From Cladosporium halotolerans (lineage: Eukaryota): a stretch of DNA of 64,000 nt. Positions 3,276-32,811 of the stretch are shown piece by piece. A program made the translations under genes and the position numbers. The DNA is taken from positions 1-64,000 of the forward strand of contig NW_027191483.1 in assembly GCF_011745625.1 (NCBI RefSeq). The letters run 5' to 3'. Each line of letters opens with the position of its first letter. Within the stretch, counting starts at the first letter, position 1. Under the pieces are notes generated by a model. It worked only from the letters and a program-made list of their open reading frames with translations, made no database searches and had not been told where the DNA came from.

Positions 3276-4819
3276 CGTTGTGTGTGCTCGCAGGCTTGAC
3301 GCCTTCCACGCGGTGACGGTTCGAAGATTTCCGAGCTCTCAGACAAGCACGTCCGTGTTGAAGTGTGTTACAGAGGGTGTCGGGCGGTGAAGTGGGCTGC
3401 AAAGAGGAGAGGCGACGAGCTCCACAAGTTGCGTTTCAGGTGTGCGCCAGAATATGCGTAGCGAGCGAAGGGGTAGGATGGAAAGACTGGTCCAGGGAGA
3501 AAACGACAGGCCAAAAGGGGGAAAAGACAGGCGAGATGAGGGACGAAAGATGGATAAGGGAACAAGTACAGATGTGTATGCAACAGAGTATGCAGAAATG
3601 GTAGGGAAAACGAGCGTAAGTCGTGCTGCGGACAGCACATGCAATAGCAGGCCAGGGTGCAGGGCTGGAATACGAGATGAAGGTGGTTTGATGACTAGGA
3701 GCACTTGACCGGGGTTGAGTGGCTGCGCCGTGTGGGCGGCGTGCGATAGGGTGCTTGCGCAGCCGCACCGTTGCGGCCCCTTGCCCTAACAGGTATGGCA
3801 GAAGCGGCTATTTTGAGCGTGCTTCCGATGGACCTCGCGGGCGAGGTCTCGCCCGTGGGGAGCGAGGAGCAAGAGCGTGAGGGAGCCGCGCGCGAGGGGT
3901 CTCGCTCAGCGCGCTGCCAGTCGAGATCTTGTCTTCTCATCTCTCCCGGGCCGGGGGAACAGCTCTCTTCCTGAGTCGATGGACCTACGCCGCCGGGTGC
4001 ACAAGGCGCGATCGTCAGGCACGCATCGCCCGCCACCGAAGCCTGCCAGCAGCGTCCTCACGCGAGCGACAGGCGCCAGCAAGGCCGGTGGGTGCCACGC
4101 GTGCTCTCGCGGTGGCGTCCTATCGCGCGCACTCCGTGCAGCTGATGGCGTTTTGGAGGCGTGTGGGCGTGATGCCAGTGGATGGCTAAGCGGCGAAGGA
4201 AGAGCGGTACGTGCCGAGACGTTGTGTCGGGCGTCTCGTCCGGCAGGGTTGCGCGTCTGCAGGCGCTGGGGAAGCCCAAGCAAGTCGAAGCAAAAGGATG
4301 CCGCGGAAGCTGGAAGGCAGACCCTCTGGCGGTGCTGCCGTCCACCCAAGCAGCCAAGCTTCCAGTCTCTCCTCTCCTGTGGCGTCGTGTGTTTCATCCA
4401 TGAACTGCCTGTCCTGATTGTGTGTCGGACACCGCTCTGCGCGGGCGACGTCGGCAGCAGTAAACGCCGACGGCCGGGCACAGCAGTGATGTGCGCGCAC
4501 GCTAACAGCGAGCGCGAAACCAACGCTCCCAAGCCCCAACACACCTCCCGTCTGCCTGTGCTGACCTACATGACGTCCGCCGCTGAGACTGCTCGTGGAA
4601 AGTTCTGACCCGCCACGCGTCTGACAGTGTCATTGTGAACATACGCGCCGTGTTCCCGACTGCCCAATACTTGGTTACCTTGCTGCTGCTATGCTGTGCT
4701 AGCCCGAGTTCTTACCAAATCCGACCTTCTGCCACTCAATCTATCTCAATCCCGCGCTGCCCGCCGCCCTAAACGCCCCTCGTGAAGCTTGCCGGCTCAC
4801 CCCATCCGACAACCGAGCC

Positions 4820-5823
4820 ATGTCTCTCTGGGCCATTGCCGACATTCACATTTCCTACAAGAGTAACCGCGAGGCTATCCAGAATCTAAAGCCGCGGCCC
4901 GAGGACGGCCTCATCCTGGCTGGCGACAGTAAGCTTGCAGCTTGCCAAACAGCCTCATGGCGACTCCCTAACCGTTGTACATAGTTGGTGAAACCATCGA
5001 ACAGCTCAATGAAGTCTTCGACATTGCGACAAGATATTTCAAGCAGGTCTACTGGGTGCCCGGTAACCATGAGCTCTATTCGTCCAGCCACGCCAAGGAG
5101 CATGAGATGCACTTGAGGGGCGAGAGCAAATACATGGCATGCATCCTAGCTGCCAAAAAGTGGGGCGTACTCACTCCGGAGGATGAGTTCACCACGTGGG
5201 AGTACACCGATGCAGATGGTGTACCGCAATGCGCCCTCGTGTGCCCCATCTTCACCCTCTACGACTATTCCTTCCGGCCAAAGGATGTCTCGCGTGAGAA
5301 GTGCATCGACTGGGCACTCGAACACGGCATCAACGCCACCGACGAACACCTGCTGCACCCGGATCCGTATGGCTCAAGAGACGAATGGTGCCACCGCCAC
5401 ATCCAACAGGCCGAAATCAAACTTGGAGCTGCCGCCGCCACTGGACTTCCCCTCATCATCATCAACCACTGGCCATTGCGCGAGGACCTTGTCTATATCC
5501 CTCTGGTTCCACGTTTCAGTCCGTGGTGTGGAACCAAGATGACCGAAGACTGGCACCTCCGATTCAACGCGAAAGTCGTCGTGACCGGCCACCTGCACGT
5601 GCGAAGGACCGACTGGATCGACAGCGTCAGGTTTGAGGAGTGCAGTCTGGGCTACCCCAAGCAATGGCAGGAGGCCAAGGACGCGGGTAACGACGTCAAC
5701 ACGATGATGAGAGAGATCCTGCCTGGACCTCCTACACCCGAGAAGGGCAAGGAGCCTCCCACTAACTGGAGACGATACGGGATACCCACCGCGACGCAAA
5801 ACGGAGGTGCTTGCTGCACTTAG
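4820..5823 (+). CDS. Calcineurin-like metallophosphoesterase, PptH (Rv2795c)-like (exons 4820-4928, 4985-5823)
   Basis: Intron GTAAGC(4929)...CTAAC...ATAG(4984). Spliced protein has all five metallophosphoesterase motifs: ADIH, AGD, PGNHE, NHWP, GHLH. It also has family-specific strings LYDYSF, ATDE.LL.PDPY.SRDEWC, FSPWCGTK.TEDWH.RFNA, VRFEECSLGYPKQW. Confidence 0.88.
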
Positions 5824-6414: not shown

Positions 6415-7261
6415 TCACAACGTCGTACAAACGCTCGCTTCCACTCCCACCATATCCGGCCTCTGCAACCCCTGCTTCCCCCAGCTTTCCATCGCAAGCT
6501 CAAAAAACTCCGCCTGCTTCTCCTCCCCAGCCATCAAACCAACCTTCCCGCGCCGCCTCCGACTCTCCCCCGTCTCCACCAACCTCGCCTCACAATCCTC
6601 GTCCCCCATCAGATCTCCCTCAAAGACAAACTCCCTCACCTCACAATTCAACCACCCCGTCCCCGCCCCCTCCCACGCCCCCTCCCAGTCCCCCGTGAAA
6701 TAATGCATCCACCCCCCATGCGCAACCAGCACAACCCGCGCCTCCCGATCCCCACCCCTAACCAACTCCCTCACCCTCTCCCTCACAAAAACCCTCGCGT
6801 CCCGCGCCCGCGCCCCCACAGCCTCGCTGCGCGCACTGTACCGCCCGCCCGGCGCTTTATCATTCCACCCCTCGCGCACGAGCGCCAGATCGACCGCCCA
6901 CCCTTCCTCCTCAACAATCTCGCGCAGAACGCCAGGATCCGAGCCCACGTCGCACGGGTCGTCGGAGATTTCCTGCGCGTCGGGCAGCGCCAGGATGCGC
7001 GGGGCGCATTTCCCGCCGCGCGCTCTCAGCGCGGGTCCGAAGACGAGGGATGCGGTTTGCAGGGTGCGGCGGAGCGGGGAGGCGAGGACGAGGGAGATGC
7101 GGGATTGCGAGGGCGCGGGGAAGGAGGTTTGGCGGAGCAGGTGGCATTGCTGTTCGCCGTGGGGGGTTAGGGAGGGGTCGCGGAGCGTGTAGGTGCCGGT
7201 GCCGGGGGGGGAGGTTGTGGTGGCCTTGGGCGTGGCGGAGGAGGTGGATCGTTGGGGGCAT
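6415..7261 (-). CDS. Histidine phosphatase (phosphoglycerate-mutase superfamily), with an apparent +1 frameshift at 7204-7211
   Basis: MPPTIHLLRHAQGHHNL (RHxQG catalytic motif) starts at ATG 7261 in one frame. LRDPSLTPHGEQQC...ASPLRRTLQT...DAQEISDDPCDVGS...VLVAHGG...GTGWLNCEVR lies in the adjacent frame. Removing one C from a C8 run joins them. Confidence 0.82.
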
Positions 7262-7902
7262 GGCGATGTGGTTCGGGCGTTAGTGATGGGCTTGTGGAGG
7301 AAGTGGAATGGATGGATTGATTTGAGGTGCTTATTGGGGTTCGTGAAGATATGTTTTTGTTTTTGTGGAAGCAAAGCCGTGACGCTGTTGCTCGACGCGA
7401 TTAATGAGAGTTGGAGAGCTTACAAAGCAGACTGAACCTATGATTCCAAACCGATAGTCCCCTTCTGCAAGAGGCAGCCAAGGCCCAATGCTTTGGTAAT
7501 CTTCATCACTTCTTGCGACTATTGAGCTCGTGGTTGATGAACTGCGCTAAACCGCATTAGGAAGCCAAGACGCAAGCGCGGAGTTTCTTTCGTAAGTGAG
7601 GTTCTGGCGTGCGCGCATGCTGTGTAACCGGCGAGATTTCAACCCACACTTTGCACGGCTAGACCAACGCAGGGGCTTTTCGATACGTAGGTTGAGAGCT
7701 ATCAAACAGTGGTCGGTCCCGCGGCCTGCGGGTCGGTTGGCGGACTCGTCGTCATGGGCCTGCTGGGTTATTAAGCAGGTTCTTTGCCGAGATGAGAGGA
7801 GACACCGTAAAGCCTTTATAAAACTCCTCTCTCTTCGACAGAAATCTTCTGAGTGCCAATTTGGAATCTCAATGCATTGTGTCGGATTGAAATTGTCCAG
7901 TC

Positions 7903-13684: not shown

Positions 13685-14445
13685 GCTTTTGGTCCGATGA
13701 TTGAATAATCCTGATGGGCCATTCCGCATCACTCGTTGGTATCCTGGACTCGCGCATTTGGCCCTTTGCTCTACCTTGCTCCGCCGATAATAATCGCTGG
13801 ATCAGCCGCTATGGTCATAGCAGTCAAGGCTGTTACGACCTCCAACAAAGACGAAGGAATAAGTGCTATTCGAATCGCCTCTGACGCGATCAGCCTGCAC
13901 CGAACCCTTGTTTCCAGAAATGGTTCTTGATCGGAGGTAGTTGCGCTTCTGCGCGGGGTTCAGCGAAACCACCAATAAAAGTCTCGCTTCCATGACCTCG
14001 AAATGATTTGAGGTCTGGTGATCGCGTGGTGTGCCGTCTGATGAGATGATTCGAGAAAAGACCATCTTGAAGAATCCTCGGACGCTCCAGCAGTGGGTAG
14101 AGAATGAGTCTACGAATGGGAAAGTCTGGTTGAGATTGGGAGTGGTTTATGTATTCATCAACGACCTGAGCATTGAATCGCAATTTTATCTCCAACGTCT
14201 GTTACAATACGTGAATGAGTTGGTTGCCATGAGTTTCGTAACGTCCATGTCTCCCGGCTTCGGAGTGATGCCCTGTATGAGTTCGTCCAGGAATGCGCTA
14301 ACCCAAAACGGACACAGCGGGTGAATCTCCAGCGAGCGCCCGCATACAACAATAAACACTCACTTAGCAACGCTCTCAATCCACTCCACCCTTCGTAGGA
14401 GATCGAACGCCGACCGAGCCCTTCGGCTCACACACTACCAGCGCC

Positions 14446-16623
14446 ATGTCGCGGTACCAGCAGGCGTCAGCCTACGACATCATAACCGGCGGCGACCCAT
14501 CACCACGCCCCGCCGCCCGCCAACGCCAACCCCTCGCAGAATCCACCGCGACATTCCGCCAATCGACGATGTCCTCGCGACCCGACCACGGGAACGAAGA
14601 CTTGCGTGCGCAGTTGCGCACGCTCCAGTATGAGCTCGACAGCCTCAAACAGGAGCGCGAACTTTCGTCGCTCGAAACGCAACAGGAACTGCGCGACGCG
14701 CAGGCGCGCGCGGAAGAGGACTTCAAGCGCGCGCAGACGGCGGAGCGCGAGCGGGATACGGCTGTGAGAAAGCTCGAGAGCGCGGCGCGAGAGGCGGCCG
14801 AGGAGCGCGATCGAGCTGTCAATGAGAGGATGGCGCTGGAGAAGAAGAATCGCGGTTTGCAAGAGGATGCGAGGCAGTTAAGAGAGGAGGTTGAGGAGGC
14901 GAGGTCTGAGGGTGAGGAGAGGGCTCGAGGGGCTGAGAGGATGGTTGGGGAGCTTGAAGCGAGGTGTGAAAGCTTGAGGATTGCTAGTGACGAAATGAGA
15001 AGAGATTTGGAAGGCAGAGTTGAGGCGGTTGCTGCTTTGCAAAAGAGGGTTGTGGAGGGTGAAGAGAAGATCGGAGAGCTTGAGGGCGAAGTCGTACGAT
15101 TGAAGGCCAAGGGTGGAAATGAAGAAACTCTTGCTGTTGTGAGGAAGGAATTGGGCCAGCAGGTGGAATACATTCGCAAGCTCGAGGGCACAAGTCGTGA
15201 TCAGGGCAATGAGTTGAAGAACTTGAGGAAGACGGCAAGAAGCGTCGAAGTGGTTGAAGAGGAGAAAAGGGCTTTGGAGGCGAAGGTCGGCATGATGGAG
15301 GATTTGAGGCGGGAGCTGTCTGAAGCTCAGCTGCAACGGAGAATACTTGAAGACGAGAAGAAGAGCTGGACCAGCTACCTTGAGAACGAGGGGCCAGAAG
15401 GTGAAGCTGCATTCGAAACACCCGAACAGATGGCAAAGGCTTTCTTGCAGGAACGACTTGAGAGACTGAGTCTTGTGGACAAATTGGGTACCATCCAGCC
15501 GGAAATGACTGTTAAGGACGAAAACATCCGGGAGCTCGAAGACGAGAAATCTAAGCTTCAAGCTGAAATCGAAACACTACGGACGACTGCTGCAACGGTG
15601 CCAGCCATCGCTGCGCCTTCGGACGCCAAAGCGCGTGCGAGACTCGAGCGACAAAAGAACCTCGCCGTCAAAGAGGTCGAATACTTGCGTGCACAGATGA
15701 AGACATTTGAAGCAGAAGAGGCAGAATTCAACGCCGAGCAAATCGATGATGAACACAACAAGCGCGTGCAGGAACTGGAGGGCATGTTGGAGAAATACCG
15801 CTCGGAACTGCAGACTCTCCACGCCGACCTCACGAAACTCGAAGCTCAACCACCAGCGACGCCATCCCAGCCGATTCTTTCCTCTCCCAAGAAGCGTTCT
15901 CGTGAGGAAGAGGAAGAGTTCGATGAGCGGCTTGGTGCTCTACGTCGCAAGCTTCGCACAGCCCAAGATAGCCTTGCACAGTCGCAAAAGCAAACATCTA
16001 TTCTTGAAGCAGAGCTCAAAGCAAACGCCAGCCAGCTTTCCTCACTGAAAGAGAATTCTCGCACACGCATTCTCGAACTGCGTTCAAATCCCACGGCCGA
16101 CGCCGAAGCCATCAAGCTATCCACACTGAGGACATTGCGCGAGGAGAACGCCGCCCTCCTCGCCCAAGTGGAAGGCAACCCGAACGGCGGGGGCAAAGTC
16201 GTGCCCGTGTCGACACTTGCCGCTGCACGCCTGACGCTCGACGAGCTTAAGACGACGCTTCAGCAAACAGAGAAGAAATCGCTTCGACTTAAGCAGATTT
16301 TCACCACAAAGTCTCTTGAGTTCCGTGAAGCCGTCGCTTCTATCCTTGGTTGGAAGCTGGACTTCATGCCCAACGGGCGGGTGAAAGCAACTTCAATCTT
16401 GTACCCCAGCCATTTCAATAGCGAGGGCGAAGAGGAGGAGAACAGTATCACTTTCGACGGTGAAAATGGCACTATGAAAGTCAGTGGCGGTCCACGGAGT
16501 GTCTTTGCTGGCGAAATAAGACAGGCTGTCGAATTTTGGGTGGAAGGCAGGAAGGAGATTCCATGCTTTCTAGCGGCTTTGACGCTGGAATTTTACGAGA
16601 GGACGACGAGAGCTCAGGGATGA
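14446..16623 (+). CDS. MAD1: Spindle assembly checkpoint protein Mad1
   Basis: 725-aa coiled-coil protein with RILELRSNPT (Mad2-interaction region), the RLK motif (RLKQIF), EFREAVASILGWKLDF and the C-terminal RWD-like domain (EIPCFLAALTLEFYE). Confidence 0.93.
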   Translation: MSRYQQASAYDIITGGDPSPRPAARQRQPLAESTATFRQSTMSSRPDHGNEDLRAQLRTLQYELDSLKQERELSSLETQQELRDAQARAEEDFKRAQTAERERDTAVRKLESAAREAAEERDRAVNERMALEKKNRGLQEDARQLREEVEEARSEGEERARGAERMVGELEARCESLRIASDEMRRDLEGRVEAVAALQKRVVEGEEKIGELEGEVVRLKAKGGNEETLAVVRKELGQQVEYIRKLEGTSRDQGNELKNLRKTARSVEVVEEEKRALEAKVGMMEDLRRELSEAQLQRRILEDEKKSWTSYLENEGPEGEAAFETPEQMAKAFLQERLERLSLVDKLGTIQPEMTVKDENIRELEDEKSKLQAEIETLRTTAATVPAIAAPSDAKARARLERQKNLAVKEVEYLRAQMKTFEAEEAEFNAEQIDDEHNKRVQELEGMLEKYRSELQTLHADLTKLEAQPPATPSQPILSSPKKRSREEEEEFDERLGALRRKLRTAQDSLAQSQKQTSILEAELKANASQLSSLKENSRTRILELRSNPTADAEAIKLSTLRTLREENAALLAQVEGNPNGGGKVVPVSTLAAARLTLDELKTTLQQTEKKSLRLKQIFTTKSLEFREAVASILGWKLDFMPNGRVKATSILYPSHFNSEGEEEENSITFDGENGTMKVSGGPRSVFAGEIRQAVEFWVEGRKEIPCFLAALTLEFYERTTRAQG

Positions 16624-28391: not shown

Positions 28392-28908
28392 TGAGGAGAA
28401 GGCAGTTAATGAGACGGCCCTTGACCCAGTCGGGCCGGTGGCACATGGGGTTTCCTGGCCACGTTAATCGCATCAGGTCTTCATCTTTGTCCAGATTTGT
28501 TCTATGTTTTCGTATCTTCGTGAGATTGAGTGACCTTGCTTCGAACCACAATACTGTTGTCTGTCTCTCGAAGCGGAGTGTCTTTCTGTGGAAATGTCGT
28601 CGGATTTTGCTGTGTGCATGTGTCGCCGCCAGTTGCATTCCGACTTCACAGGTTGTCGACCCGCAGTGCAGTTTACGTGACGGATTTGCCATCTAGTCCC
28701 AGAGAAGACAATGTTAAATTGATACACAACGTGGTTATGCTGCTGGAGATTAAAGCCGCAAGGAAGTCGAGGGTCGCGCTAGCAACCGATGTTTGTTTTG
28801 CCGCCAAGCACTGGAGTCAACAACCAGACTTTCAAGTCAGCGCGACAGTGCAGTCTCGTCTTTGCGACGACCAGCGACCAACGATACCCCTCACGAACTC
28901 ACGACAAA

Positions 28909-31900
28909 ATGGCTGGATCCGGCGACCTTATCGACTTCAATGTCATCGAAGGTCACAAGGAAAACATCCAGGCTTTGCCCAGCGGCCGCTCCGCGAAAGC
29001 ACTCGCGCAACTGTACTCCCCACCGCTCCTTGGGGCTAACCCCTCACCCTCATTAATCCAAGACGCAAACTCGAAAGAACGCCAGGCCTTCGAGAAAGAG
29101 CTTGGGCAAATTGACGAAGCCGACGACCCGCTGGATGTTTACGACCGCTACGTGAAATGGACTCTCGACGCATACCCTACGGCGCAAGCGACGCCGCAAT
29201 CAGGCCTGCTGCCCCTGCTTGAGCGCGCAACAAAGACGTTCCAGTCGTCGACACATTACAAGAATGACCCTAGATATCTCAAGATCTGGCTACATTACAT
29301 CAGACTCTTCTCAGATGCGCCTCGCGAAGTCTTCATCTTCCTGTCGCGCAACAACATCGGCGAGTCCCTCGCGCTTTACTACGAGGAATTCGCAGCATGG
29401 TTGGAGAACGCTGGAAGATGGAATCAGGCGGAAGAGGTGTATAAGATGGGGATGGAGAAGGAAGCCAGGCCAGTGGAGCGCCTGATCCGCAAATTCGGCG
29501 AGTTCGAGCGAAGAAAAGAGGCCAGACCAGAGGACTCGAACGAGCCCTCGAGTCCTGCTCTTCCCACAGTAAGGCCAGCTTTGGCCGCGAAGACCGACCC
29601 CTTCGCTTCTGCATCTCCGGCGCAGCCACAGCAAGCGAAGTCGACTGCCCCTAAGAAGGGCAAGTCGTCCAAGATGCAGATTTTCGCCGACGGAGACGAC
29701 TCAGACAGGCCTAGTTCGGGCGCCAGCTCAAGAGGCTGGGACAACATTGGCTCTCTCGCCGAGCGCAAGAAGGAGAACACGCACGCGGCAAAGCCGATGG
29801 CGGGCGAGAAGCTGAAAGTCGGCAAGACCAACGGTGGTATGCAGAAGATGATGGTGTTTAAGGATGCAGTAAGTTGAACCTCCCCATCGCCGCACCTAGC
29901 GCGCATTTTATTTACAAACGCAGGACTAAGTTATCCCTCGTGTATGCAGTCATCAAAGAAATCGTTCCTACCCAAACATCTTGCAAAATCCACTACCGGT
30001 GAGATTGACAACTATCAATGCGTGAAGAATCCAAAGAACGGAAGACTCGAATGTGTGTTTGTGAACTTGGAGGCCGTATATCCCAGAGGATCGTCGTCTG
30101 AATATTCGTTTGAAGAGCTGCGAGCGAAACACAGGGGATGGACGGACAAGCAATGGTCGAGACAACGGGAAGAGACAGCACATAAATCGCAGCCCGAAGC
30201 GGCTCTCGACGTTGCGCTTGACAACGATTTAGAACAAAACGAGCCATCCGAGGCTCCCAGCAAAGGCTTTAAGATTCATCGAGACGAGCCCGAGCCTGAA
30301 CCCGCGCCTAAGCAAAAGCAACGCGGCTTCAAGATTTTCGAAGATACTCCCACGGATGCTGGACCATCTGAGAAGTCACCACAGCAAGACGAGGTTTTCG
30401 TCGAAACATCATCCAAGACGCTTGCGCTGAATGACGAGAACGACGAAAACGCACCGCCATCTCAGCCGTCGGAAGCCGAGATCCGAAAGAAGATGCGACG
30501 AGAGGAGCGTGCAAACAGGACCCGGAAGATCCAGGTTATGGACGTCAAGCACATCAAGGGTGAGACGAAGACCATTCAACTCAACCTCGATTCACCGACA
30601 GGTCAGAAGCCCAAGCGGAAGAAGAATACCGACAAGGCCGAGCCGACTATGACAATCAACACGAAGGAGGCCATGGACGAGATTTATGGCATCTTCAACG
30701 CTCCTTTGCCTTCGCAAGGTAGCCAGTCGGAGAGTGAGTCAGAATCTTCCGATGACGACGACGAAGATGACTATACCACGGGCGACGAAAGCACGGCTAC
30801 TGGCAAGCTCTCTGCTGCACACAGCGACTACGGAGACGAGACACGTAACGAGCTGCTTTCGCAGGCCCAAGCAGACGAGCCGGAAGACGATCGTACTGAG
30901 AACACTGGATGGTCTGATTTCACCACTAGCAAGCATGTGCCGAAGGAAGCCGAAGACCGCGACGACACAGCTGGATCTACAGCAGGCTTGGATTGGGAGC
31001 CACAGCAGGAAGACAAGAATCAGCCTGAGCTTCCTGACGAAGAGATGATCACGCCTGAAGAGGAGAACGTCCAGACACGAAGCATTCCTATCGCCTCGGA
31101 AGACTATGAGCCGCCTTCAGCTCAATTCCAGCAGATGTCGATGTTACCGAATCATCGCCTTCCGTTCATGACACCAATTGCAGAGCAGACAGAGTCGTCT
31201 TTGGGCACCATCACCGCAAGAGCTCAGAAAGATTACTTCAATGCGAAGACGCCTAGTAGGCAGGCTTCGGGTGCGGTTCCAGAGTCTGATGACGAAGACG
31301 ACGAGCCTCCCAGCAGCCCTTTCCAGGAGGTGACTGTTGACCTGGCCGATGACAAGTTCAAAGTTCTGCAGCCCATTCGTACCAAGTCGACGAAGGGCAA
31401 CATCTCGCTCGGAAAGGGAACAGCAGTTGCTCAGACCGAGGCGAAGACGGCAGAGCCATCTGCACAGGACGCCGTACAAAAGGGCCCGATTGTGCTGGAG
31501 CAGCAGTGCAATCCTATGGATCCGAATTTGCGCCAGACAATCTTGAGCCAGATGAAGCCGTCCCTGTCTACATTTGAGGGCTATCATGAGCACTCGGGTG
31601 TTGCATCTGGCCGAACATCTGAAATCAAGAAGTATATCAAGACTCTGTCGAAGACAGGCAAGAACAGCATGAATCCTGAAAAGACAGGACAGACTCTTGG
31701 ACTGCCTCCAATGCTCCAATTTGAAGGCTCGAACGCGACTTACACTATTCAAAGGGAGCTCGGCGCAGGTACCTTTGCGCCCGTATACCTCGTTGAAAAT
31801 AGCGAAGTCGTTCAGGCAATGAAGGAGGAAAACGAGGAGAACAGCCCTGCCGCTCGTGGTGTCGGCAAGCTTGCCCATCGAAAGCCATTCGAAGCCATCA

Positions 31901-32811
31901 AGATGGAGGAGCCGCTGTCCGCCTGGGAGTTCTTCATCCTACAGCAGTCACACCGCCGTCTCGGTGTCTCTCGCGCCGCAGAGAGCATCGTCCGCGCGCA
32001 CGAAATGCACATGTTCCGCGACGAGTGCTTCCTCATTGAAGAGTACCGCAATCAAGGCACCCTGCTGGACCTCGTCAACATCGCCCGCGCTGACACCGCC
32101 AACTCCTCCGGCGGCGGCATGGACGAAGTGATGGCAATGTGGCTGACCGTCGAGCTCTTCCGCACCGTCGAAGCCCTGCACGCCAAGCAGATCATCCACG
32201 GCGACCTGAAGGGCGACAACGTGCTCGTCCGCTTCGACGACCCTGGCATGGAAACGGACTGGAACTCGACCTACTTCCCCAGCGGCGCGCACGGCTGGGC
32301 CAGCAAGGGCATCTGCCTCATCGACTTCGGCCGCGGCATCGACATGAAGCACTTCGTGCCGAATGTTGCCTTCATCGCGGACTGGAAGACGACGGAGGCG
32401 GATTGCGCGGAGATGCGCGAGCTGCGCCCTTGGACTTACCAGGTCGACTACCACGGCATGGCGGGCATCGTGCACAGCATGCTGTTCGGCAAATACATGG
32501 AGACGATCGCGGACCGCGGCGCCTCGCTTGGCCAGGGCGCGACGAAGACGTATCGCATTCGCGAGAACCTCAAGCGGTACTGGCAGGTGGAGATTTGGCA
32601 GGAGGTGTTTTCGTTGCTGCTAAATCCTCTCATGCACCTGGCTGGCGAGGAGGGAAAGAAGATGCCAGTGCTCAATGGTATGAGGGGTCTGAGGTTGAAG
32701 ATGGAGGGCTGGCTGGAGGAGAACTGTGAGAGAGGTATGGGCCTCAAGGGCATGATCGGAAGGATGGAAGCTATCACTAGGGAAAAGAGGAAACGCGGTG
32801 GGAGAGCCTGA
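28909..32811 (+). CDS. BUB1: Checkpoint serine/threonine kinase Bub1/Mad3 (MadBub, SldA-like; exons 28909-29868, 29950-32811)
   Basis: N-terminal KEN box (HKENIQALPSGRSA), TPR domain (DDPLDVYDRYVKW, YKNDPRYLKIW), GLEBS (EYSFEELRA), PTMTINTKEAMDEIYGIF conserved motif, kinase domain (ELGAGTFAPVY, IIHGDLKGDN, LIDFGRGID). Intron GTAAGT(29869)...GCAG(29949). Confidence 0.96.

Follow-up and report, generated by a model that had tools for sequence, protein, structure and literature searches.

A PptH-family metallophosphoesterase gene in Cladosporium halotolerans, a candidate fungal phosphopantetheinyl hydrolase

Whether fungi possess an enzyme that takes the 4'-phosphopantetheine arm off their carrier proteins is the question raised by a gene of the ascomycete Cladosporium halotolerans. 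The gene lies at 4820-5823 on the plus strand of a stretch of 64,000 nucleotides (positions 1 to 64,000 of contig NW_027191483.1, RefSeq assembly GCF_011745625.1; called the window here), and a preliminary description of this DNA had taken its product for a homologue of PptH (Rv2795c), the phosphopantetheinyl hydrolase of Mycobacterium tuberculosis (Mtb). According to the accessible text of PMC8557913, Mtb PptH acts broadly on the carrier proteins of fatty-acid synthases (FAS), polyketide synthases (PKS) and non-ribosomal peptide synthetases (NRPS). The statement that PptH 'appears to be limited' to mycobacteria comes from that accessible text alone, and the accessible part of PMC8433221 concerns mycobacterial PptH orthologues only. 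The literature we found on PptH, Rv2795c or 'phosphopantetheinyl hydrolase' deals with M. tuberculosis only, and none of the papers found combines Rv2795c with fungi. The remark in the preliminary description that such an enzyme is undescribed in fungi thus agrees with the papers found, yet one NCBI record, from Exophiala dermatitidis, is already named '[Acyl-carrier-protein] phosphodiesterase PptH'. Here we report that the PptH family is much wider than the mycobacteria and includes a well-conserved, expressed fungal branch, and we propose that the window protein would, on balance, most likely serve to cleave the phosphopantetheine arm off holo carrier proteins.

Gene structure, transcription and family membership

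From the sequence and from RNA contigs, the gene was read as two exons with 315 codons (the coordinates of its parts are collected in Table 1). The 4928-to-4985 junction completes an ATT codon, and the protein reads ...AGD-I-GETIEQ... across it, where full-length fungal homologues read ...[AC]GD[IV]GE...; between the GT at 4929 and the AG ending at 4984, the intron has a CTAAC branch-like site near 4967. The exact junction is present in RNA contigs from three runs, each of a different study (X1, a metatranscriptome run, and X2 and X7, probable RNA runs), all skipping the 56 nt, whereas the DNA-like run X15, of near-identical sequence, retains the intron. Because the RNA contigs skip these nucleotides and the DNA-like run keeps them, we regard the splice as proven: the gene is transcribed and correctly spliced, with an intact reading frame, and the single intron postulated earlier is borne out at 4929-4984. 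The X1 contig carries at its 5' end a 20-nt loose end that we read as resembling a cDNA template-switch adaptor, and since the contig begins there, the transcript starts at approximately 4632. The 5' leader also contains a three-codon upstream open reading frame (ATG CTG TGC TAG, 4691-4702, plus strand) before the main ATG at 4820.

For the protein comparisons, exon 1 (P0002) and exon 2 (P0001, 278 aa) were used separately and never joined, and residue numbers below are those of P0001. Exon 1 matches the N-terminus of the Pfam Metallophos domain (E 0.004) and is colinear at its N-terminus with full-length fungal homologues. A phmmer search of all PDB sequences with exon 2 found 6unc_A at E 7.6e-53 and 182.7 bits (query 5-248 against chain 60-290), an entry titled phosphopantetheinyl hydrolase PptH from M. 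tuberculosis in the Foldseek table, and no second PDB sequence close to exon 2, the sole other chain at E up to 1 having E 0.92. General-purpose models were less specific. Pfam assigned exon 2 to generic PF00149 Metallophos alone (E 1.4e-8), the ESM Atlas returned generic metallophosphoesterase clusters only, and no curated NCBIfam model, PptH-specific or other, reached its cut-off (TIGR03729, 29 bits against a cut-off of 148).

An alignment of 46 sequences served to build the AlphaFold model of exon 2, which lacks the 37 N-terminal residues of exon 1 and has a predicted local distance difference test score of 91.7 and a predicted template-modelling (TM) score of 0.90. In Foldseek it matched the four 6UNC chains at E ~1e-20, with TM 0.78-0.79, root-mean-square deviation 2.0-2.2 Å and 36-38% identity, while the runner-up had E 1.8e-3 and every non-6UNC chain TM ≤0.40; among these others are purple acid phosphatases, Mre11/SbcD and the cyclic-nucleotide phosphodiesterase Rv0805 (TM 0.28-0.33, E about 1e-2). 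Compared with 6UNC, the model also shows the fold elaborations particular to PptH, a 4-layer sandwich with extra helices.

The eight motif strings of the preliminary description all occur, and in colinear order: LWAIADIH is read in exon 1, and exon 2 contains, in order, YWVPGNHELY, WGVLTPED, TLYDYSFRP, NATDEHLLHPDPYGSRDEWC, NHWPL, FSPWCGTKMTEDWHLRFNA and GHLHVRRTDWIDSVRFEECSLGYPKQW. The five metallophosphoesterase motifs for a binuclear Mn-Fe centre (D-x-H, G-D, G-N-H-E, H and G-H-x-H) are all there. For Mtb PptH, the accessible text of PMC8557913 gives an Mn-Fe centre and names H248 as one of the metal ligands; the H246N mutant is inactive there, and the allele C225R, in the active site, causes loss of function. 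When residues were mapped through the phmmer alignment with 6unc_A, these three mutation-defined positions, C225, H246 and H248, corresponded to C181, H202 and H204, each of which is invariant in A2, an alignment of 46 fungal, actinobacterial and other bacterial sequences. The positions invariant in 46/46 sequences of A2 are G26-N27-H28, T63-P64-E65, P87, F89, Y92-D93, D119, P127, W180-C181-G182, T186, W189, G201-H202, H204 and S220. Many of them are not metal ligands, and their fixation across the family suggests a single specific substrate common to members from fungi through Actinomycetota.

By its sequence, modelled fold and predicted catalytic residues, then, the window protein is a member of the PptH family, and the sequence resemblance is well past chance and past generic metallophosphoesterase likeness. 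The homology claimed at the outset is upheld by the 6UNC match, by the superposition (TM 0.79 to 6UNC against ≤0.40 for others) and by the retention of the mutation-defined residues. Like Mtb PptH, the window protein has the family motifs TPE, YDYSF, WCGT..T..W and RFEE.S.GYP and a similar length (315 aa against the 313-residue PDB chain), and the two agree in fold (TM 0.79, deviation 2.1 Å) and in the five metallophosphoesterase motifs. Unlike it, the window protein is eukaryotic, is encoded with one intron and without an operon shared with a phosphopantetheinyl transferase (PPTase), is only 36-38% identical, falls in a clan of its own, to which a metagenome-assembled genome (MAG) of Myxococcota stands closest among the bacteria of the tree, and has a conserved fungal C-terminal tail, REILPGP...WRR.G.

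The fungal branch and its origin

A word-indexed protein search returned 6012 proteins at E≤1e-3, and the named records among the best 120 of these are all from Pezizomycotina, bar one labelled Quercus suber. Among the matches listed, Polychaeton citri (Capnodiales) is the nearest named relative at 74% identity. A second search, with the more distant intronless fungal member P0298 (locus L115) as the query, added Knufia, Lithohypha, Penicillium chermesinum, Xylaria, Paramyrothecium and many Pleosporales. By taxonomy, the fungal examples belong to the Dothideomycetes, Eurotiomycetes, Sordariomycetes and Leotiomycetes, and identity across these four classes of Pezizomycotina is 56-83% among the matches listed. 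The Pezizomycotina are the makers of most fungal polyketides and non-ribosomal peptides. A HMMER scan of 1.84 billion representatives gave 563 clusters at E≤1e-3 and 78 at E≤1e-30, indicating a compact family.

Several database entries carry misleading labels. The Quercus suber record (P0021) shares 72% identity with the window protein and stands amid dothideomycete matches, and it is probably fungal DNA contaminating an oak assembly. Five fungal orthologues (P0058, P0060, P0068, P0080, P0341) are named 'transposase' in NCBI/UniRef, although their only Pfam domains are metallophosphoesterase domains; the name is likely a propagated annotation error. The contig L001 (L001:1-8401, GTDB contig NYXK01000208.1), assigned to a 'Deltaproteobacteria' MAG, has a guanine-cytosine content of 52% and long intergenic gaps and is 99.9% identical to PKS-linked fungal-type metagenome contigs (L121, L129). 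It is almost certainly a fungal contig mis-binned into a bacterial MAG.

On the bacterial side, a pattern scan of prokaryotes (one genome per species) found 456 relatives. The scan used two fungal-like peptide patterns (FTLYDYSF and NHWPLR[EQ]D), which left actinobacterial members beyond its reach. The best 80 of the 456, with identities of 41-54%, belong to Myxococcota, Chloroflexota, Acidobacteriota, Planctomycetota and Alpha-, Beta- and Gamma-proteobacteria; the loci L002-L080, found through these common strings, encode proteins that are 41-49% identical to the window protein by tblastn. The PptH-like genes of these loci differ from the fungal gene in being intronless, and they are uncharacterised, with varied neighbours apart from PPTases. 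Actinobacterial members were reached through two other proteins, P0136 and P0147, which match 6UNC at 346 and 310 bits and whose clade is known from representatives only. A search with P0136 returned Streptomyces, Nonomuraea, Kutzneria, Actinoplanes, Nocardiopsis, Micromonospora and others, and together with the 6UNC scores this identifies their clade as the actinobacterial PptH clade. In A2 the window protein is 56-73% identical to fungal sequences, 43-52% to non-actinobacterial bacterial ones (Myxococcota, Chloroflexota, Acidobacteriota and Proteobacteria give the top bacterial identity) and 35-41% to those of Actinomycetota. The label 'actinobacterial', which the preliminary description had given to the family, is therefore too narrow, as at least five further bacterial phyla carry it and are closer to the window protein.

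We inferred a tree of 65 rows with IQ-TREE (LG+C20+F+G4 with posterior mean site frequencies, no outgroup), a preliminary FastTree having served for the choice of rows only. All 19 fungal rows form one clan (ultrafast bootstrap 100 / SH-aLRT 99), in which the window protein pairs with Polychaeton (99/87) within a Capnodiales/Mycosphaerellales group (100/99). The sister of the fungal clan is L008, the Myxococcota MAG (96/87), and the actinobacterial core including P0136 and P0147 is a separate clan (100/99), so the window protein is placed outside the clade of the characterised enzyme. The deeper branches are weak, with supports of 7-54. When the fungi were constrained to join 11 of the 12 actinobacterial rows (P0150 being left out), the tree was 21.4 log-likelihood units worse and was not rejected by the approximately unbiased (AU) test (p-AU 0.185). 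The best tree does not bear out an actinobacterial sister group, though such a sister is retained by the AU test.

With the fungal proteins, a known enzyme family gains a new branch, a eukaryotic one. The transfer probably ran from bacteria to fungi, since the family is broad in bacteria and limited, among the matches listed, to one fungal subphylum, and the distribution over four fungal classes indicates that the acquisition is old rather than recent. At exactly the GD|[IV]GE site, an intron of 51-101 nt occurs in 24 of 40 assessable fungal-type metagenome loci and is absent in 16; all 24 intron-bearing loci are close relatives of the window gene, and 14 of the 16 intronless loci are more distant members (52-62% identity), as would be expected if the ancestor was of the bacterial type, without an intron, and the lineage of the window gained one afterwards. 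An old bacterial origin followed by intron gain is well supported by these comparisons, in which the fungi are nested among bacterial sequences; a bacterial origin and the gain of one intron had been suggested in the preliminary description. Most likely, the gene would have entered a leotiomyceta ancestor from a bacterium and acquired its intron later in the lineage of the window. As to the donor, we lean, tentatively, towards Myxococcota over Actinomycetota, the backbone of the tree being weak and the AU test compatible with an actinobacterial sister.

The gene tree does not follow class boundaries within the fungi. Dothideomycetes appear in three places (Pleosporales; the Mytilinidiales-like Lophium and Lepidopterella; Capnodiales/Mycosphaerellales), and Xylaria groups with Bisporella (99/95), which hints at old or hidden paralogy, fungus-to-fungus transfer or weak signal.

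The link to phosphopantetheinyl transferases and the proposed function

We scanned 151 open reading frames, the nearest ones flanking the 79 bacterial loci L002-L080, and found an Sfp-type PPTase (PF01648) as the immediate neighbour in 13 of them, spread over Myxococcota, Alphaproteobacteria, Acidobacteriota and Chloroflexota. In eight loci the PPTase lies upstream on the same strand and abuts the start (L014, L035, L039, L050, L057, L062, L066, L077), and in one it lies downstream on the same strand (L063); it is divergent in L021 and convergent in L027, L044 and L068. A genome has one to a few PPTase genes. By our own estimate, chance would give far less than one PPTase neighbour per 79 loci, several of the 13 loci being mutually related. 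In two fused database proteins, P0250 (645 aa) and P0216 (388 aa), a PPTase N-terminal domain comes after the PptH-like one. Other fused records combine the PptH-like domain with an MFS transporter (P0149, 825 aa) or with a bacterial PH domain (P0190, 863 aa), and all four may be true fusions or read-through gene calls. The tie of the family to phosphopantetheinylation therefore holds well outside the mycobacteria. It is mainly for this linkage, and further for the residue conservation, that we carry the function over to the fungi.

We propose the following scheme. The nuclear gene, of a dothideomycete-like ascomycete, encodes a 315-residue PptH-family metallophosphoesterase that would be cytosolic, this location being predicted from a protein that opens directly at its first strand, without a presequence. 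Its two-metal centre, of the Mn/Fe type by homology, would activate water for the cleavage of the phosphodiester between the conserved serine of a carrier domain and the 4'-phosphopantetheine arm. The acyl and peptidyl carrier protein (ACP and PCP) domains of PKS, NRPS, FAS and Lys2-type enzymes would thereby revert to the apo form, in opposition to the Sfp-type PPTase. The fungal substrate and any regulatory or repair role are what we infer from the family as a whole. The same reaction, removal of phosphopantetheine from holo-ACP in a metal-dependent manner, is described for AcpH of E. coli and Pseudomonas in the accessible text of PMC8557913, which reports AcpH from Gram-negative bacteria only. 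The likeness lies in the proposed reaction, as AcpH is a mostly helical HD-family protein unrelated in sequence and fold to the window protein, for which Pfam gives Metallophos families only and the model a metallophosphoesterase fold.

Several observations weigh against a carrier-protein substrate. With 36-38% identity to Mtb PptH and a place outside the actinobacterial clade, the window protein could have a different substrate. Enzyme assays exist for mycobacterial members only, and relatives are named 'CpdA, cyclic AMP phosphodiesterase' in several sources (JGI, NCBI). In the accessible text of PMC8557913, Mtb PptH is non-essential and has no mouse phenotype, and its authors do not exclude small-molecule substrates. 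The 79 bacterial loci are a biased sample, drawn from the best 80 of the 456 pattern matches, and 66 of them have no PPTase neighbour. In the window itself, Pfam scans of 43 open reading frames across the 64 kb revealed no PPTase (PF01648), PKS, NRPS or carrier protein, so that the PPTase linkage is seen at the level of the family (13/79 bacterial loci) and not at the window gene; to our knowledge, operons are not expected in fungi. Among the eight fungal loci with long flanks, seven have housekeeping neighbours and one has a PKS beside the gene. That one locus speaks for the carrier-protein reading: in the fungal-type contig L121, the PptH-like gene lies 830 nt downstream of a highly reducing PKS (KS-AT-DH-CMeT-KR-ACP-reductase) on the same strand.

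These points feed the foremost competing explanation, which we consider less likely, though still the one to be reckoned with: the fungal protein would be a PptH-family phosphodiesterase acting on a non-carrier substrate, such as compounds related to coenzyme A (CoA) or dephospho-CoA, cyclic or linear nucleotides, or a lipid head group, and its likeness to PptH would reflect ancestry and not function. The separation of the fungal clan from the sole characterised member, about 37% identical, would be natural under this explanation, as would the lack of PPTase or carrier-gene linkage in 7/8 long-flank fungal loci and in the window; the invariance of TPE, YD, WCG, T186, W189 and S220 from fungi to Actinomycetota, however, argues for one specific substrate, and PPTase adjacency or fusion recurs in four non-actinobacterial phyla. 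That small molecules are not excluded as PptH substrates in the accessible text of PMC8557913 leaves room for it. The CpdA labels at JGI and NCBI also speak for this explanation, but they may be set against the modelled structure: the binuclear metallophosphoesterase core is common to CpdA, Rv0805, PF00149 and the window protein, whereas the TM to Rv0805 is only 0.28-0.33 and no NCBIfam equivalog was reached, which does not place the window protein among the class III cyclic-nucleotide phosphodiesterases.

Far less probable is a decaying or functionless relic of horizontal transfer, transcribed without a selected role. Its confinement, among the matches listed, to one fungal subphylum and the dispensability of the characterised bacterial homologue, as given in the accessible text of PMC8557913, might suggest such a relic, but the frame is intact and correctly spliced, and 56-83% identity is maintained over four classes with every catalytic residue kept and synteny conserved. 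Bacterial DNA contaminating the fungal assembly, which a mainly bacterial family and the mis-filing of L001 as an example of such mix-ups might bring to mind, is next to impossible and was rejected, given a spliceosomal intron that is removed in RNA, fungal flanking genes (a TRP-like channel, Zn2Cys6 factors, MAD1, BUB1, UTP20) and the same synteny in 13 independent fungal contigs.

Returning to hydrolysis of the carrier-bound arm as the preferred function, we suggest, more tentatively, that the gene represents a fungal phosphopantetheinylation 'eraser' from an old, myxobacterium-like donor, which would make carrier priming reversible in eukaryotes. If true, secondary metabolism and the synthesis of fatty acids and lysine would gain a step of reversible control or of repair, the enzyme serving either to switch carriers off or to rescue blocked carrier domains. 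It might further account for released pantetheine-bearing products, for which a fungal activity has been missing. The accessible text of PMC13476535 (2026) describes a fungal non-reducing PKS that gave a pantetheine-bearing product in yeast, calls the responsible enzyme elusive and states that its authors found no AcpH homologue in yeast. The PptH family, too, seems to be absent from yeast. An enzyme of this kind would be relevant to the heterologous expression of fungal synthases and to PPTase-directed antifungal ideas, and the gene offers a testable candidate for the carrier-stripping reaction in filamentous fungi.

Neighbouring genes in the window and in related loci

The features of the gene and its annotated neighbours are given in Table 1.

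Table 1. Positions of the PptH-like gene, its motifs and annotated neighbours in the window
Feature	Position	Strand	Remarks
TRP-like channel	985-2961	minus	Pfam; upstream of the PptH-like gene
5' untranslated region	4632..4819	+	X1 RNA contig starts at 4632; X2 and X7 cover the stretch too
Exon 1	4820..4928	+	ATG, 36 codons and base 1 of codon 37; ends ...LILAGD
D-x-H motif	4841-4849	+	exon 1; ≥90% conserved in A2
G-D motif	4922-4927	+	exon 1; ≥90% conserved in A2
Intron	4929..4984	+	56 nt, GT..AG, phase 1; cuts the codon following the GD motif; RNA-supported
Exon 2 (P0001)	4985..5823	+	278 full codons; stop TAG 5821-5823
G-N-H-E metal-ligand motif	5062..5073	+	P0001 residues 26-29; G26, N27, H28 invariant in 46/46 of A2
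N-H of NHWPL, metal-ligand motif IV	5464..5469	+	H161 of P0001, ≥90% conserved in A2
W-C-G-T family motif	5524..5535	+	C181 aligns with Mtb PptH C225; W180, C181, G182 invariant in A2
G-H-L-H motif	5587..5598	+	H202, H204 align with Mtb PptH H246, H248; G201, H202, H204 invariant in A2
Histidine phosphatase (His_Phos_1)	6415-7419	minus	Pfam; convergent to the PptH-like gene
MAD1-like, BUB1-like spindle-checkpoint genes	14368-16623, 28783-32811	+, +	within 17 kb of one another

The TRP-like gene upstream is syntenic in 13 related fungal loci. The convergent histidine phosphatase was considered as a conserved partner and dropped, as tblastn finds no copy in any related fungal locus; a His_Phos_1 gene also adjoins a Chloroflexota homologue, again in convergent orientation (L005:6733-7428, minus strand). 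A major facilitator superfamily (MFS) gene two genes downstream was likewise dropped as a partner, tblastn showing that it is not syntenic in related fungal loci. Apart from this MFS transporter, the further genes of the window are ordinary fungal ones, for Zn2Cys6 factors and for housekeeping proteins (eIF2B-epsilon, RPA1, UTP20, CwfJ, an Ariadne-type E3 ligase, THI5/NMT1 and 6-phosphogluconate dehydrogenase). Among the bacterial loci, eight from Chloroflexota (L033, L040, L045, L047, L061, L070, L071 and L072; Ardenticatenaceae, Promineifilaceae, Anaerolineae) have a Crp-type regulator (cNMP_binding and HTH_Crp_2) as the next gene upstream of the PptH-like one, in the same orientation.

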